Origin: Tannockella kyphosi
Lineage (GTDB): Bacteria; Bacillota_I; Bacilli_A; Erysipelotrichales; Coprobacillaceae
Direction of reading: 5' to 3'
Assembly: GCF_021054785.1 (NCBI RefSeq)
Contig: NZ_CP088239.1
Span: forward strand, 1,620,001-1,652,000
DNA: 32,000 bases
Shown: in pieces, positions 183 through 31,712 of the stretch
Numbering within the stretch: the first letter of the stretch is position 1
Layout of the letters: each line of letters begins with the position of its first letter
Program-made: the position numbers and the translations under genes
Notes under the pieces: model-generated
Database searches by the model: none
Told to the model about the DNA's origin: nothing
Seen by the model: the letters and a program-made list of their open reading frames with translations, nothing else

Positions 183-295
183 ACGTATTTAATAAGATAT
201 ATAGAAAGGAATAAAAACAAAATATTTATCTATAATAATAAAGAGCGGTAGAAGTACTCTAAGTGAGCCTACTCGTGCATATGACGAAATAAGTG

Positions 296-324
296 TTGAC
301 TTCAAAATCAATTTACTGTATATT
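296..324 (+). promoter_or_regulatory. Sigma-A type promoter between the two hairpin units
   Basis: TTGACT (296-301), a 17 nt spacer, then TATATT (319-324), with TG immediately upstream of the -10. The predicted start near 331 would give an RNA of about 80 nt containing unit B and the terminator. Confidence 0.5.
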
Positions 325-380
325 TGTTGTATGGAAAGCGACCGTAGTATTCTAAGTGAACCGTGTGACGCGCAAACAAA

Positions 381-412
381 CTCTTTATCGTTATGATAAA
401 GGGTTTTTTGTT
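381..412 (+). terminator. Rho-independent terminator ending 12 nt before the Abi start codon
   Basis: Stem CTCTTTATC (381-389) pairs with GATAAAGGG (395-403), 9 bp including one G-U. The loop is GTTAT, followed by TTTTTTGTTT. Confidence 0.7.
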
Positions 413-423
413 TATAATAATAT

Positions 424-1383
424 ATGAAACCATTTAAAAGCATAGACGAGCAAATTGAAATATTAAAAGAACGTGGATTAATTATCGATGACTATGAATT
501 CGCTAAAAAGTATCTCTTGCATAATAATTACTATAATGTTATTAATGCTCACTCACACTTTATTTACAAAAATAATAATAATAATTTTATTGATAATTTG
601 ACATTTAAAGAGATAGTAGCAATTCATTATTTTGACAAAGAAGTTAAGAGCATCCTGTTTAAACATCTACTTGATTCAGAGAAGAGATTTAAATCTATAG
701 TCGCTTATAAATTTTCCGAAAAGTACGGCTCTAATGATTATCCATATCTTAATGTTAATAATTACAATCCAAAATCTATTTTCGAAGTAACTAGTACTAT
801 TGCAAAAATTTCGCAAATTATACAAAGGAAAAAATCAAAACCCGGCAATTCCATTAGTCATTATTTCCAAATATATGATAATATTCCATTTTGGATAATT
901 ACTAACGAATTAACATTCGGTCAAACACTCCATCTATATGATCATTTTGATATATCCCTACGAAATAGTATAGCTAAGGAATTTAGCCTGATTTTAGAGG
1001 ATAACTTAGAAGTTGAAGGGGTTCGAATAACACCTGACGACCTATATACAACGTTAAATAATTTATTAGAAATAAGAAATATACTAGCCCATAATAATCT
1101 TATGTACTACTTCAAATGTAGAAAGAACATTCCTTATATAACAGAATTACATAATCTCTTCGACATGAAACATGATTCCCCTAAGAATGCTGTATATGAC
1201 GTGTTTCTTGCACTATATTGTACTTTATCCTATAACCAATATGTCGAATTGCACAATACAATTAGAAAAAGAGCGAGGACACTTAACAGAAATCTAGTAG
1301 TTATTGATGCAAATGTGGTTATGAACAGCTTAGGTTTTCCAGACGATTGGTTTAATTGCCCTGCCAAACCTACCAGAAATTAA
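424..1383 (+). CDS. Abi-like protein, AbiD/AbiF (Abi_2, PF07751) family, HEPN-type putative RNase (abortive infection)
   Basis: 319 aa. The N-terminus MKPFKSIDEQIEILKERGLIIDDYEFAKKYLLHNNYYNV is typical of the family. A HEPN R-x4-H motif (EIRNILAHNN; R218 at 1075-1077, H223 at 1090-1092) is present. No Shine-Dalgarno sequence is visible upstream. Confidence 0.85.
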   Translation: MKPFKSIDEQIEILKERGLIIDDYEFAKKYLLHNNYYNVINAHSHFIYKNNNNNFIDNLTFKEIVAIHYFDKEVKSILFKHLLDSEKRFKSIVAYKFSEKYGSNDYPYLNVNNYNPKSIFEVTSTIAKISQIIQRKKSKPGNSISHYFQIYDNIPFWIITNELTFGQTLHLYDHFDISLRNSIAKEFSLILEDNLEVEGVRITPDDLYTTLNNLLEIRNILAHNNLMYYFKCRKNIPYITELHNLFDMKHDSPKNAVYDVFLALYCTLSYNQYVELHNTIRKRARTLNRNLVVIDANVVMNSLGFPDDWFNCPAKPTRN

Positions 1384-2882: not shown

Positions 2883-5069
2883 TCATCTCCTTTTGTTAGG
2901 TTTCCCTTTAGAATGAGCATTTCTTTTCATAACAGGTTTCTTCTTTGTTTTTCTTTTAAAATCACTTTTCATATCTGCAATTACAAAGTCAATCTTCTTT
3001 TCTTTTTTACTTGCACTACTTACACGGATACGAACATGATCAGACATCTTAAACTTCTTACCAGTTCTTTGTCCTACATATTGTAAATTCAATTCATTAA
3101 AGAAATAGAAGTCATCCGATAACTCACTAACATGCACTAGTCCTTCAATCGTATTTTCTAATTCAACAAAAAATCCAAAATTAGTAACCGAACTAATAAC
3201 TCCATCAAATTCTTGACCTACATATTGCTCCATAAATTCAGCTTTTTTCATATCTTCTACATCACGTTCTACTGTAATTGCAATTCTTTCACGATTTGAA
3301 GATTGATACGCTAAATCAGGAATAACCATTTCATAATGATCTAATGTTTTTTCACTAACATCCTTTTCAACTAAATACGTACGAATCAAACGATGTACTA
3401 ATAAATCAGGATAACGACGAATTGGTGAAGTAAAATGTGTATAATATTCATCTGCTAAACCATAATGCCCTAAACATTGTTCATCATATCTTGCTTTTTG
3501 CATGCAACGTAATAAAAGAGTTGCGATTAGTTCATGATTTTCTGTTCCTTTTGATGATTCTACTAATTGACTTAATACAACCGGTTTAATATCTTCTAAA
3601 GATCCTTCAATCCCATATCCTAGAATACTAGCTATTGATTGAAATTTTTGTAGTTTTGCGACTTTTGGATGTTCATGAACACGATAAATAAAAGGTAAAT
3701 CTAATTGTTCAAAGTGTTTTGCTACTGTTTGATTAGCAAGTAACATAAACTCTTCAATAATACGATCACTAGTTCCTCTGGTTCTTAAAACAATATCTTT
3801 TACTTTTCCTTTTTCACTAACTAATACCTTTGCTTCTTTCACATCAAAATCAATAGCACCTCTTCTAGCTTTACTATCTTCTAATATCTTAGCAAGCTCT
3901 TGCATTAAGAAAAATAAATCAATTACATCATGATACTCTTCTTGTAAAAGCTTATCTCCGTCTAATATCTTATTCACATTATGATATGTCATACGATAAT
4001 TCGAATGAATTACACTATCACTAATCTTATGATTCACAACCTGTCCATGATGATCTATTTCCATAAAACAAGATAATGTTAAACGATCCACTTGTGGATT
4101 CAAAGAACATATTCCATTCGATAACTTATGTGGTAACATTGGTACAACACGATCCACTAAATAAATAGATGTTCCCCTAGCAACCGCTTCTTTATCCAAA
4201 GCAGAACTTTCGGTTACATAATGTGACACATCTGCAATATGAACCCCTAAATAATAATTCCCATTCTCTAATCTTTTTAAAGAAATAGCATCATCCAAAT
4301 CTTTTGCATCATCCCCATCAATAGTAACAATAACTTCCTCTCTTAAATCTAATCTACCAACCAAATCCTTCTCTAGAACAACATCTTCTATCTTATCAAT
4401 TTGTTGATAAACATCCTTAGGGAAAGCAATATCAATATCATGTTCCTTTAGTATTGCCAGAATATCAATTCCAGGATCACTTTTATGACCCAACACTTCT
4501 ACAACAGTACCTTTTACATTTGACTTAAATGCCTTAATTTCCACTACCACCATATGCCCAACTACAGCTCCATGAAGATGTGCTTTATCAATAAATACTT
4601 CTTTATCCAAACCTAAAATAGTACTCTCAACATAACAATCACGTTTTCCTTTTTTCAACAAACCAACGATCCTTGTTTTATTTCTTTTCACTAATTTTAA
4701 TACTTTTGCTTCTTTTTTACTTTCATAAGGAGCTTGGAAGATTTGTATAAAAACAGTATCTCCATCAATACTTCCTTTTAAATTATCAACAGAAACAAAA
4801 ACATCTTGTTCCATTCCTTCTATTGTTACAAAACCATATCCTTTTTTATTCAAAGATAAATTACCTATATAACAATTAAAATGACTAGATAAATAATACT
4901 TATTATCATCATCTTTCATAATAATACATTGTTCTTCTAATTCATTTAACTCTTTTAACAACTCTTTTACTTCTTGGCTAGTACTTATTTGTAAATGAGT
5001 ACTAATCTCTTCATCTAAACGTTCTAAGAAGTTCTCATTTTCTAATAATTCTATTATCTTTTCTTTCAT
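2883..5069 (-). CDS. rnr: Ribonuclease R (3'-5' exoribonuclease, RNB family)
   Basis: 728 aa with cold-shock-like N-terminal region, an RNB core ([25 protein letters not shown]), an S1 domain ([20 protein letters not shown]) and a basic tail. AAGGAGG lies upstream of the ATG. Confidence 0.95.
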
Positions 5070-29930: not shown

Positions 29931-31712
29931 TTACTCCCCTAAAGAAACTACTTCATAAAGTAATGTTTCTTCTTGTTTCCCTTTTAATTTTTTATATCCT
30001 AAAGCATTAAAAATAACTCTATTTCCTAGGGCATCTACTACTTCTTGACTTACTAGTATTTGATTTGCTTGCGCATTTGATTCTAAACGAGATGCAGTAT
30101 TTACCGTATCACCAATAGCCGTATAGTCTAAATGCCTAACACTACCAATATTACCAACGACTGCTTCTCCTATATGTACACCGACACCTACCATAAAGGG
30201 ATGTCCGTATTTTTCTAACGTATATTTATTACTTTCTTTACATGCTTCTCTTAGTTCTACTGCACATTTCACTGCACGATAGATATAATCATCTACATCA
30301 AATGGTGAATTAAAGACAGCCATTGCTGCATCACCCATAAACTTATCTACTGTACCTAAGTTATCAAAGATAACATTGGTAATAATATTGAAATGACCAT
30401 TTAATATGTCTACTACTTCTTCTGGTGATAATCTTTCAGATAGTGTAGTAAATCCTCGAACATCAATAAATAATACAGCTATATGTTTTGTTTGACTATT
30501 TACTTGTTCTAAGTCTTCTTTGTTTGCAATTACTTTTTTTACTACTTGTGGAGATACATAAGTTTCAAACATTTGAATCGTTTCTCTTTGTTTTTTTCTT
30601 ACCACAAAGTAACTAAATACTGTATAAAGTACCCATACTAAAAAGCTAATTACTGGTAGTACTAATAATGGAATACTTAATCCATTATTATATAAAGTCT
30701 TACAAGCTATAAAATAAATAATATTAATAACAACAGTAGTCATTGCTCCCTTAAGAACAGTGAAACTCATTACTAAATAACTAGAAACAAATATGAAAAC
30801 AAACAAAATCAAACTATGTAACCAACTATCTATTGTTAATACTGTACTTCCATTTAAAATAGATTCAGCAATATTAATATGAATCTCTACTCCATACATC
30901 TGCGTATCCATTTCTATTGCAACATTATAAGCATCTTGCATCCCTGATGCATGTGCTCCAACTAATACATAACAATCTTTAAAACTACGAACATCTACTG
31001 TTCCATCTAATACATCAATTAAAGATACTTCTTCATAGGTACAACTCTTAGCAACATAAGAAAAACCAAATACATTACTACTAGACATATTTATTTCTGG
31101 AATTTCTACTCCTGTATTTTCAGCAATTTGATTAGCTAAAATAGCTGCAAAACTATAATAAGTACTATCTTCATAATCAATACTATATAAAGATCTACGA
31201 ACTACAGAATCATCATCAATAATAGCGTTAGAAAATCCTTGTAATGTTACTTCTTGTAATGCACTAAAAGGTTCTTCAATAAATTCTACAGACATATTAT
31301 CTACATTAATAACTGCTTCTTCTACTTCTGTTATCGTATCTTCAAAAGATATTAAATTAACTACAGCAACATTACCAAAATCCTTAGCAGCATCTACAAA
31401 CGCTTGATCTCCATCTTCAGAAATAGTTCCTGAAAACAAAATATCGAAACCAATAAAATAAGGTGCATATTCTGTATCTAATATTTCAATTAACTGAGCA
31501 TATACACTACGATCCCAAGTACCAAAGGTACCTAGTGTATCTAATGTTTTTTGATCAATTTTAATTACTTTTATATTTGTATTAATAGCACTTTCTTCTT
31601 GATATACAGCATCTTGAACTTTTTGATCAAAATAGTAAAAAACATTACTATAAGAACAAAAACTTCCAATCAAAGCTATAAAAACACAAACAATTAGTTT
31701 TTGTATTCTCAT
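29931..31712 (-). CDS. CHASE2 sensor domain-containing class III adenylate/guanylate cyclase (predicted adenylate cyclase)
   Basis: 593 aa. Architecture: TM1, an ectodomain of about 260 aa (CHASE2-like), three TM segments (aa ~298-370), then a cyclase domain VLFIDVRGFTTLSE…VDKFMGDAAMAVF…VGVGVHIGEAVVGNIGS…DYTAIGDTVNTASRLES with both metal-binding Asp residues, Asn and Arg present. Confidence 0.88.
   Translation of the reverse strand: MRIQKLIVCVFIALIGSFCSYSNVFYYFDQKVQDAVYQEESAINTNIKVIKIDQKTLDTLGTFGTWDRSVYAQLIEILDTEYAPYFIGFDILFSGTISEDGDQAFVDAAKDFGNVAVVNLISFEDTITEVEEAVINVDNMSVEFIEEPFSALQEVTLQGFSNAIIDDDSVVRRSLYSIDYEDSTYYSFAAILANQIAENTGVEIPEINMSSSNVFGFSYVAKSCTYEEVSLIDVLDGTVDVRSFKDCYVLVGAHASGMQDAYNVAIEMDTQMYGVEIHINIAESILNGSTVLTIDSWLHSLILFVFIFVSSYLVMSFTVLKGAMTTVVINIIYFIACKTLYNNGLSIPLLVLPVISFLVWVLYTVFSYFVVRKKQRETIQMFETYVSPQVVKKVIANKEDLEQVNSQTKHIAVLFIDVRGFTTLSERLSPEEVVDILNGHFNIITNVIFDNLGTVDKFMGDAAMAVFNSPFDVDDYIYRAVKCAVELREACKESNKYTLEKYGHPFMVGVGVHIGEAVVGNIGSVRHLDYTAIGDTVNTASRLESNAQANQILVSQEVVDALGNRVIFNALGYKKLKGKQEETLLYEVVSLGE

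Follow-up and report, generated by a model that had tools for sequence, protein, structure and literature searches.

A conserved, covarying RNA hairpin 5′ of an AbiD/F-family HEPN gene in Tannockella kyphosi: a candidate type III-like RNA-antitoxin module

Organization of the locus

The subject of this report is a gene for an AbiD/F-family (Abi_2) HEPN protein, here called abi, and the RNA hairpins predicted directly 5′ of it near the left end of a 32,000-nucleotide (nt) stretch of the Tannockella kyphosi genome (contig NZ_CP088239.1, positions 1,620,001 to 1,652,000), which as a whole is referred to as the window. An earlier note, made from the letters alone, had taken the gene and an upstream RNA module for a type III-like abortive infection pair. 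Comparative analysis of homologous loci confirms that the two hairpin units of the window are real members of a conserved, covarying hairpin family tied to abi genes. The features of the locus are collected in Table 1.

Table 1. Features of the abi locus, in window coordinates.
Feature	Position	Strand	Basis
Putative −10 box (TATAAT) of promoter P1, 7 nt 5′ of unit 1, without a good −35	231–236	+	Read from the sequence; conserved position
RNA hairpin unit 1 (long class)	244–279	+	Model R2, 42.7 bits, E 2.9e-9
Promoter P2 (TTGACT-17-TATATT), 12 nt 5′ of unit 2	296–324	+	10/12 consensus matches
RNA hairpin unit 2 (long class, degenerate copy)	337–374	+	Model R2, 24.7 bits, E 1.8e-4
Rho-independent terminator T2 (stem-loop 378–406, T-run to 412)	378–412	+	13-pair stem
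Spacer of 11 nt without Shine-Dalgarno, TATAAT at 413–418	413–423	+	Alignment A6
abi gene, 319 amino acids, AbiD/F-family (Abi_2) HEPN protein, presumed RNase toxin	424–1383	+	Open reading frame and family matches
Codons of the HEPN motif RNILAH (R218–H223)	1075–1092	+	Alignment of homologues

The protein belongs to the Abi_2 family and its catalytic motif is intact. Abi_2 (PF07751) is the only significant Pfam family in it (111 bits against a cut-off of 25.6, E 1.1e-31, residues 29–228) and AbiD is its sole PADLOC match (E 4.4e-47, residues 1–312), while no NCBIfam model matches it. It is 100 per cent identical to the T. kyphosi 'Abi family protein', the next relative being 49 per cent identical, and in a neighbour-joining tree it stands as the sister of an Erysipelotrichaceae-type clade. 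The motif RNILAH, which the earlier note had read as the HEPN R-x4-H motif of a 319-amino acid (aa) Abi_2 protein, holds up well: R218, N219, A222 and H223 are invariant across 44 aligned homologues, and the equivalent R/H pair is needed for the toxicity of AbiFCd and the activity of PbAbiF (PMC12373285). Against the PbAbiF chain 8vz6_A the single sequence matches at E 2.1e-10 and the profile of homologue alignment A1 at E 4.3e-24 (residues 2–311 onto chain residues 9–295), with RNILAH aligned with RNSCCH of PbAbiF. Judged by these alignments, the open reading frame (ORF) is an intact family member and a full-length homologue of PbAbiF (PDB 8VZ6), and by homology the protein would be a HEPN RNase.

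Upstream of the gene and on the same strand, the in silico layout is that of a non-coding RNA, with promoter, hairpins and terminator lying directly 5′ of abi. The hairpin units start 180 and 87 nt 5′ of the ATG at 424. Positions 244–269 and 337–362 form a 26-nt direct repeat (77 per cent identity, start-to-start spacing 93 nt), and the units have in common the sequence TCTAAGTGA(G/A)CC. In unit 1 all 10 pairs of the family are possible: a basal stem (245–251 paired with 269–272 and 274–276) is followed by a 5′ internal loop at 252–256 (AAGUA), an inner stem (257–259/265–267) and a loop at 260–264 (UAAGU). Unit 2 has basal pairs at 338–340/369–371, 341–342/365–366 and 343–344/362–363, with two bulges, and carries the same UAAGU loop (353–357) on an inner stem of 350–352/358–360. 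The inner hairpins, CUC-UAAGU-GAG and UUC-UAAGU-GAA, differ by one compensatory change. The two related units with a common loop and a single compensatory change that had been described earlier are thus present to within a few bases, and the pair at which they differ covaries across the family as well.

Promoter-like sites are not enriched as a class in positions 1–1700, an AT-rich stretch (13 found against 9.7 ± 2.7 expected), and P2 is the best of them with 10/12 matches. Its credibility comes less from this score than from its conservation, because relatives share an equivalent site at the same position (TTGACA-17-TAnAAT in 12 of them). P1 is not listed by the promoter consensus scan and its −35 is poor; a −10-like hexamer (TATAAT, TAGACT or TATACT) occurs in the same place before the first unit in three close relatives (L023, L012 and L019) and in others. 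The promoter placed between the units by the earlier note is there, then, as the second of two, the conserved −10 box of P1 preceding unit 1. T2 follows unit 2 within a few nt and is as strong as had been claimed (−12.2 kcal/mol, z −5.4, 0 of 200 shuffles as good), with its stem beginning at 378 and a gap to the ATG of 11 nt rather than 12. No promoter is found by the consensus scan between T2 and ATG 424. Short direct repeats (AAACAAAATATTTATC/AAACAAACTCTTTATC and TTTATCTATAATAATA/TTTGTTTATAATAATA; 215–240 against 374–389 and 407–422) bracket the two-unit block; they could have been left by duplication of a cassette, or be a chance product of the AT-rich sequence.

A covarying hairpin family 5′ of abi genes

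The comparison covered 80 genomic loci with Abi homologues (28–49 per cent identity), each with 3 kb of flank on either side, for a total of 524 kb. Inspection of the upstream regions finds a hairpin of one design just 5′ of the gene in nearly all loci down to ∼34 per cent identity. The 5′ half reads A-GYG, a variable stem of 4 base pairs (bp), a 3–5-nt 5′ internal loop, YUC, a UAYG or UAHGU loop and GRG, and the 3′ half continues with one unpaired base, the 4-bp partner and (Y)UGC-G, after which comes a rho-independent terminator. Folded, the 7-bp basal stem leads through the 5′ internal loop to a YUC/GRG stem of 3 bp, which is capped by the UAYG(U) loop. Members fall into a short class (31 nt, UACG tetraloop) and a long class (35–36 nt, 5-nt loop). 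The window units belong to the long class, with UAAGU instead of the commoner UACGU.

Pairs were counted on ungapped, sequence-anchored alignments that had not been fitted to the structure, A2 for the short class and A5 for the long class with the window excluded; a mixed MAFFT alignment of both classes (A3), in which the 3′ half is shifted by one column between classes, was left out of the counts. In A2 (18 sequences) 98.9 per cent of cells are paired, against 36–49 per cent in registers slid by 1–3 columns, and in A5 (16 sequences) 98.1 per cent, against 18–53 per cent in the slid registers. Four pairs have changed on both sides in each class, and 0 of 500 shuffles reach the covariation score in either, a control that, given the relatedness of the sequences, does not amount to a probability. 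The slid registers and the range of pair types found at single positions (AU, GC, CG, UA and GU) agree with covariation. One inner-stem pair of A5 (CG in 9 sequences, UA in 5) is the very pair at which the window units change from C-G to U-A. Frequent G-U pairs (column pair 4–27 is G-U in 16 of 18 sequences and 13–20 is U-G in 9 of 18) make the fold specific to RNA of the + strand.

Two family covariance models were used, R1 for the short class and R2 for the long class. Since R1 gave no match in the window, R2 was built without window sequences, from 16 hairpins of other genomes. It finds both window units at the scores of Table 1 and nothing else below E 1 in the 32 kb, with both strands searched and filters off. 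A weak R2 match at 30867–30906 (+; 9.1 bits, E 2.6) lies inside a minus-strand 593-aa ORF (29931–31712) and is taken as chance. Across the 524 kb, all R1 or R2 matches at E <0.01 are on the strand of the gene and at most ∼220 nt 5′ of its start, and they are present in 51 of the 80 loci. A conserved structure with compensatory changes 5′ of Abi_2 homologues, which the earlier note had proposed to look for, is therefore found, with four basal pairs compensatory. R2 also detects members of the short class, which links the two length classes.

The motif is present in the pneumococcal prophage IPP38 as well (45.3 bits), 40 nt 5′ of abi and between repressor and integrase genes. Two variants of the motif, scanned as patterns against viral contigs, returned 21 stretches, all of them chance matches, with no R1 match below E 0.2 and no Abi gene; these scans are uninformative on distribution. 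A resemblance of AGUAC..GAGCC to the sarcin-ricin loop was considered and dropped, the AGUA not being conserved in the family and the 3′ strand being too short.

The hairpin is not the Rfam abiF motif

The earlier note had pointed to the 'abiF' motif of Rfam upstream of abiF genes, which is RF03085, and the window RNA turns out to be something else. At gathering level Rfam 15 finds only the transfer-messenger RNA (tmRNA) in the whole window. RF03085 is likewise absent from 20 homologous loci, and from L043 2860–3010 at E ≤ 10; no Rfam family matches in these upstream regions, where only terminator look-alikes (PyrR, Thr leader) surfaced. With a gathering threshold of 37 bits, the positive controls score 37.6, 59.1, 44.0 and 40.1 bits. 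They include the RCd22 region of the Clostridioides difficile phage phiC2, with two RF03085 matches (37.6 and 19.5 bits), and two Bacteroidota plasmid loci, whose proteins are 51 and 39 per cent identical to the PbAbiF chain and which have RF03085 directly upstream (59.1 and 40.1 bits). The regular expression AAGC.{3,18}GCTCAAA occurs twice in phiC2 but neither in the window nor in any of the 80 homologous upstream regions; conversely, neither R1 nor R2 matches in the phiC2 RCd22 region. Because the controls match and the window fails, the two AbiF systems that have been studied by experiment belong to the RF03085 type and the window locus does not, and an identity of the window RNA with RF03085 is rejected. 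The lack of any Rfam match together with a lack of conserved upstream structure had been held to speak against the proposed pairing; the Rfam match is indeed missing, but the structure upstream is strongly conserved.

The two motifs share a general plan. Both are found 5′ of Abi_2 genes, are of similar length (36–37 nt for RF03085, 31–38 nt here) and combine a basal stem of 6–7 bp with an apical stem of 3 bp. In RF03085 the 5′ side carries a bulge of 1 nt, the loop measures 11 nt, the 3′ internal loop is a conserved stretch of 6 nt (CAAAUC) and the apical stem is AAGC..GCU, whereas the window motif has a 3–5-nt 5′ internal loop, a 4–5-nt UAYG(U) loop and only a 1-nt 3′ bulge, so that the asymmetry of the internal loop is opposite, and the conserved nucleotides differ. 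CUCU opens the apical region in both (CUCUCAAC vs CUCUACGG; consensus CUCUCAACGAU vs CUCUACGG/CUCUAAGUG), a similarity of sequence that may hint at a remote common ancestry.

The RNA type follows the protein clade on the Abi protein tree, and other upstream elements were seen in other clades. In L064–L073, a distant Abi_2 clade (∼30 per cent identity), a promoter and then a hairpin UCUUCGGU-AUCCCGUGUGGA-CCGAAGA lie ∼50 nt 5′ of the abi start; the hairpin has a conserved AUCCCGUGUGGA loop and is terminator-like, and its U-tract runs straight into the ATG. A Lactococcus lactis plasmid locus (L082 1250–1345) and an Enterococcus faecalis plasmid locus (L083 745–850) carry an upstream element ..UUCCCUG..GAGUCUUUUUUU; this element (UUCCCUG...GAGUC) has no RF03085 match and no R1 match and is unlike the window motif by eye. 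The enterococcal locus also has a drum RNA (RF02958, 50.2 bits) at L083 291–388, 5′ of the plasmid abi locus. In a Phocaeicola massiliensis plasmid (L109) RF03085 stands at 527–563, 5′ of a PbAbiF-like gene, and a second copy with a 25-nt insertion in its loop lies just downstream (1554–1613).

Cassettes in relatives and the state of the window copy

Twelve relatives of the Erysipelotrichaceae type carry two promoter-hairpin-terminator cassettes (three in L006), followed by a strong Shine-Dalgarno and the ATG, and every unit in them has its own promoter and its own terminator, all in + orientation. The three cassettes of L006 stand in tandem (1–260) with a period of 117 nt, which suggests that cassette number changes by unequal recombination. 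Loci of Streptococcus and Selenomonadales (L028–L039, L015, L025, L042 and L043) are arranged in another way: the Shine-Dalgarno (GGAGG or GGGGGAG) lies in the 3′ arm of the terminator and the start codon, often TTG or GTG, directly follows the U-tract, so the hairpin could block both transcription and translation.

Alignment of the window with L023, L012 and L019 (A6) reveals two deletions private to the window. One of ∼35–40 nt takes the terminator of unit 1 (terminator 1), and a gap of ∼16 nt falls where the three relatives carry GAAAGGAG or GAAAGGTGG, with loss of the GAAAGGAG ribosome-binding site. A Shine-Dalgarno is found 5′ of the ATG in all 12 relatives, and GGAG-like sites occur at most other long ORFs of the window. 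Unit 1 is near-identical to the units of L023; unit 2 reaches only 24.7 bits vs 40–55 bits in relatives. With terminator 1 lost, the P1 RNA is expected to be ∼170 nt long and to hold two hairpins, as in RCd22. The TATAAT in the spacer ends 5 nt before the ATG and has a poor −35; that it gives a leaderless abi mRNA is speculative. On this comparison the window copy is derived; it probably yields very little toxin, and the module may be attenuated.

Genomic neighbourhood

Between abi and the tmRNA, a serine recombinase gene survives in fragments (1520–2040, +). Stops break up the N-terminal part (VAAYCRFNSDNQ...), which matches Pfam Resolvase at E 0.0018, and near 1900–2040 there is a C-terminal-like fragment. 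Beyond the tmRNA are a 151-aa ORF (2431–2886, −) and a 728-aa ORF (2883–5069, −), which from their translations we take to be SmpB-like and RNase R-like, respectively. The tmRNA itself occupies 2042–2389 on the minus strand (143 bits, Rfam 15). In L007 a tmRNA also adjoins the abi locus, and several other relatives have tRNA genes beside theirs. The abi module looks like the cargo of an integrative element at ssrA, now decayed, at whose edge it lies. To the left, positions 3–179 (+, frame 3) encode the C-terminal 59 aa of a lysine-rich protein that extends past the window edge (..GKAKRAVKKAIIPAYGKKGTGIIKNPKKAVYNKVYNK..) and has no Pfam match, and an 84-aa ORF on the minus strand (189–443) spans the upstream region of abi.

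Proposed mechanism and alternatives

There is reason to think, at a probability of roughly 70 per cent, that the locus belongs to the known AbiF kind of type III-like module, in which an RNA antitoxin is paired with a HEPN toxin, and that its RNA is an uncatalogued variant. The pairing suggested by the earlier note gains from the homology to PbAbiF, the RCd22-like layout and the conserved hairpins, its function being argued by analogy: RNA–protein binding, neutralisation, toxicity and a phage trigger at the window locus are inferred from AbiFCd/RCd22 and PbAbiF/AbiFr. In such a module the constitutive promoters P1 and P2 would drive short RNAs, each containing the 35–38-nt family hairpin or hairpins, and most transcription would end at T2. 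P1 would yield an RNA of ∼170 nt that holds two hairpins, and P2 one of ∼80–90 nt that holds one hairpin, predicted sizes that agree with the ∼170 and ∼80 nt given before. Rare read-through of T2 would be the only evident route to abi mRNA. The Abi HEPN RNase would presumably dimerise, and the hairpin RNA would bind it and keep it inactive, so acting as a transcription attenuator in cis and an antitoxin in trans. Phage infection would then upset the balance of RNA and protein and free the RNase, leading to growth arrest or abortive infection.

The way in which inhibition works in the tested systems can be carried over as an assumption only, because the window RNA does not have the 6-nt 3′ internal loop of RF03085. 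With that loop missing, the silencing nucleotides must lie elsewhere in the RNA, and candidates are the YUCUAYG apex, which hardly varies, and the 5′ internal loop.

Several observations weigh against this module, the missing 3′ internal loop among them. RF03085 is absent from 150–500 even at E ≤ 10, no −35 can be recognised for P1, terminator 1 has been lost and the abi start is not preceded by a Shine-Dalgarno. The isolated hairpins fold no better than shuffles (z −0.14 for unit 1 and +1.58 for unit 2), and in both units the minimum free energy (MFE) structure departs from the family fold, unit 1 drawing a different inner helix and unit 2 adopting another structure. The family folds of the window are worth −6.5 (unit 1) and only −2.6 (unit 2) kcal/mol, vs an MFE of −8 to −13.5 kcal/mol in relatives, and single-sequence folding of 225–423 is uninformative (z −1.66). 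Because single-sequence thermodynamics fails to support the hairpins, their support is comparative. Finally, the adjoining recombinase gene is a pseudogene, so the module may itself be silent or decaying.

This last point leads to an alternative that we regard as unlikely, namely that the family biology is the same while the copy in this genome is a non-functional remnant, silenced or uncoupled, and confers neither toxicity nor defence. It is compatible with an RNA-antitoxin module at the level of the family and differs only on present-day activity. The two gaps of A6, which remove terminator 1 and the GAAAGGAG site kept by close two-unit relatives, are what would be expected of a remnant, as are the Shine-Dalgarno sequences of most other long window ORFs, the low score and weak fold of unit 2 and the fragmented recombinase beside the tmRNA. 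Yet the 319-aa ORF is full length and keeps all invariant residues of the family, and unit 1, P2 and T2 are intact. It might also be countered that a toxin gene whose antitoxin is still present is under no pressure to decay, that low translation may be tolerated or even selected, and, speculatively, that the TATAAT at 413–418 could yield a leaderless mRNA.

A second alternative, which we hold to be improbable, is that the hairpins serve as a cis-acting leader only, in an attenuation- or riboswitch-like control of read-through, perhaps autoregulation by Abi, with no antitoxin in trans. In relatives a terminator comes directly after each hairpin, no promoter intervenes between T2 and the ATG, in many loci of Streptococcus and Selenomonadales the 3′ arm of the terminator contains the Shine-Dalgarno, and RCd22 is reported to repress abiF in cis (PMC12373285), all of which would suit a leader. 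However, RCd22 neutralises AbiFCd in trans as well, by direct binding (PMC12373285), and PbAbiF has been seen in a structure bound to its RNA (PMC12737573, PMC13064643). The relatives argue in the same direction, since their two or three cassettes are complete and share neither promoter nor terminator: upstream cassettes cannot attenuate abi but make sense as dosage of a free small RNA, and such independence favours a free small RNA that acts in trans over a leader alone.

It is very improbable that the repeats are not RNA at all but a chance repeat in AT-rich DNA, a DNA operator or part of the minus-strand ORF at 189–443 that covers the region, even though the isolated units fold like shuffles and two-copy short repeats are often chance, because a model built without the window finds both units, the promoters and terminators of relatives all have + orientation, the helices covary and are rich in G-U pairs, which read from the other strand or as a DNA palindrome become A-C mismatches, and upstream lengths differ by whole cassettes, which a conserved ORF could not tolerate; the strand-specific pairing and the variation in cassette number are the grounds on which the ORF and operator readings are rejected.

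Implications

AbiD/F (Abi_2) genes are among the commonest phage-defence genes, and since 2025 they have been seen as RNA-antitoxin systems ancestral to Cas13. An AbiD/F toxin with an upstream non-coding RNA, type III-like and related to the ancestry of Cas13, is the kind of system published in that year. Only RF03085 is catalogued as a partner RNA, and only RF03085-type pairs have been tested. The hairpin described here might be a second, structurally distinct and uncatalogued class of cognate RNA for AbiD/F HEPN toxins, used by a large clade of Bacillota (Erysipelotrichaceae, streptococci including pneumococcal prophages, lactobacilli and Selenomonadales), an idea that we put forward tentatively and at somewhat less than even odds. 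If it is true, the window class of RNA would neutralise its toxin by a contact other than the 3′ bulge of AbiFr, for example by the 5′ internal loop or the UAYG loop. With at least two further RNA types in other Abi_2 clades, toxin and RNA would have co-diversified into mutually specific pairs, in an RNA–protein specificity shift of the kind from which the direct repeats of Cas13 are thought to descend.

As far as Rfam 15 and the searched literature show, a body that does not include the 2025 Cell paper on AbiF and Cas13, the second widespread motif and the multi-cassette organization are new; that paper may already describe such RNA diversity. The motif offers an annotation handle by which many 'orphan' Abi genes could be recognized as two-component systems. 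The pairs would also form a natural set of orthogonal RNA–toxin combinations in which to see how a HEPN RNase recognizes its RNA and is silenced by it, and a point of comparison for the shift in RNA specificity toward Cas13. For the T. kyphosi genome the message is modest: a recognizable, probably attenuated defence locus in a decayed mobile element at the tmRNA gene.

Comparison with known systems

The closest known systems are AbiFCd/RCd22 of the C. difficile prophage phi027/phiC2, in which a promoter, two hairpin motifs and a terminator lie 5′ of abiF (PMC12373285), and PbAbiF/AbiFr (PDB 8VZ6), whose structure in complex with its non-coding RNA comes from the Cell 2025 study of Zilberzwige-Tal et al. 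as cited in PMC12373285 and PMC12737573. RCd22 terminates most transcription before abiF, and it is the integrity of its stems that matters, not their sequence (PMC12373285). PbAbiF is a dimer with one non-coding RNA per monomer blocking the HEPN site, and bulge nucleotides of the RNA block the active site (PMC12737573, PMC13064643). Both systems resemble the window in several ways. Their Abi_2/HEPN proteins are homologous to the window protein and share its R-x4-H motif, and directly upstream on the same strand stand one or two hairpins of ∼35 nt and then a rho-independent terminator. The toxin gene is reached only by read-through, and the systems are carried on mobile elements. They differ in the RNA, which is of the RF03085 type there and of another motif here. 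RCd22 has its two motifs on one transcript, whereas the relatives of the window have separate promoter-hairpin-terminator cassettes, and the window Abi is only 29 per cent identical to phiC2 AbiF. The PbAbiF RNA and RCd22 are themselves somewhat different in structure (PMC12373285), so some divergence among AbiF RNAs is to be expected.

The lactococcal proteins AbiD1, AbiF and AbiD-like belong to the same superfamily as the window Abi, to which PADLOC gives the name AbiD. They need a short upstream region with a strong promoter and a terminator for function or clonability, which has been described as an upstream promoter-terminator region (PMC11381338, PMC13064643). A tblastn search of Lactococcus plasmids with the window Abi gives no match at E ≤ 1e-5.

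ToxIN and AbiQ, on whose layout the earlier note had drawn, are alike in the combination of a protein RNase toxin with an upstream RNA antitoxin, in a terminator that limits the toxin and in an abortive-infection role. The order of RNA, terminator and toxin does hold in the window. The repeats do not follow the pattern, since ToxI and antiQ are head-to-tail arrays of ∼36-nt repeats (34–36 nt) processed by the toxin, whereas the window has two copies 93 nt apart and Tandem Repeats Finder returns 0 arrays in 150–500. The toxins differ too, being of the ToxN/AbiQ fold there and Abi_2/HEPN here, the only Pfam and PADLOC families matched.

CRISPR-Cas13 is like AbiF in that a HEPN RNase is checked and specified by a short hairpin RNA, and its descent from AbiF has been proposed in the literature. 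The window module, unlike Cas13, has no CRISPR array, spacer or second HEPN domain, and its RNA is without a guide segment.

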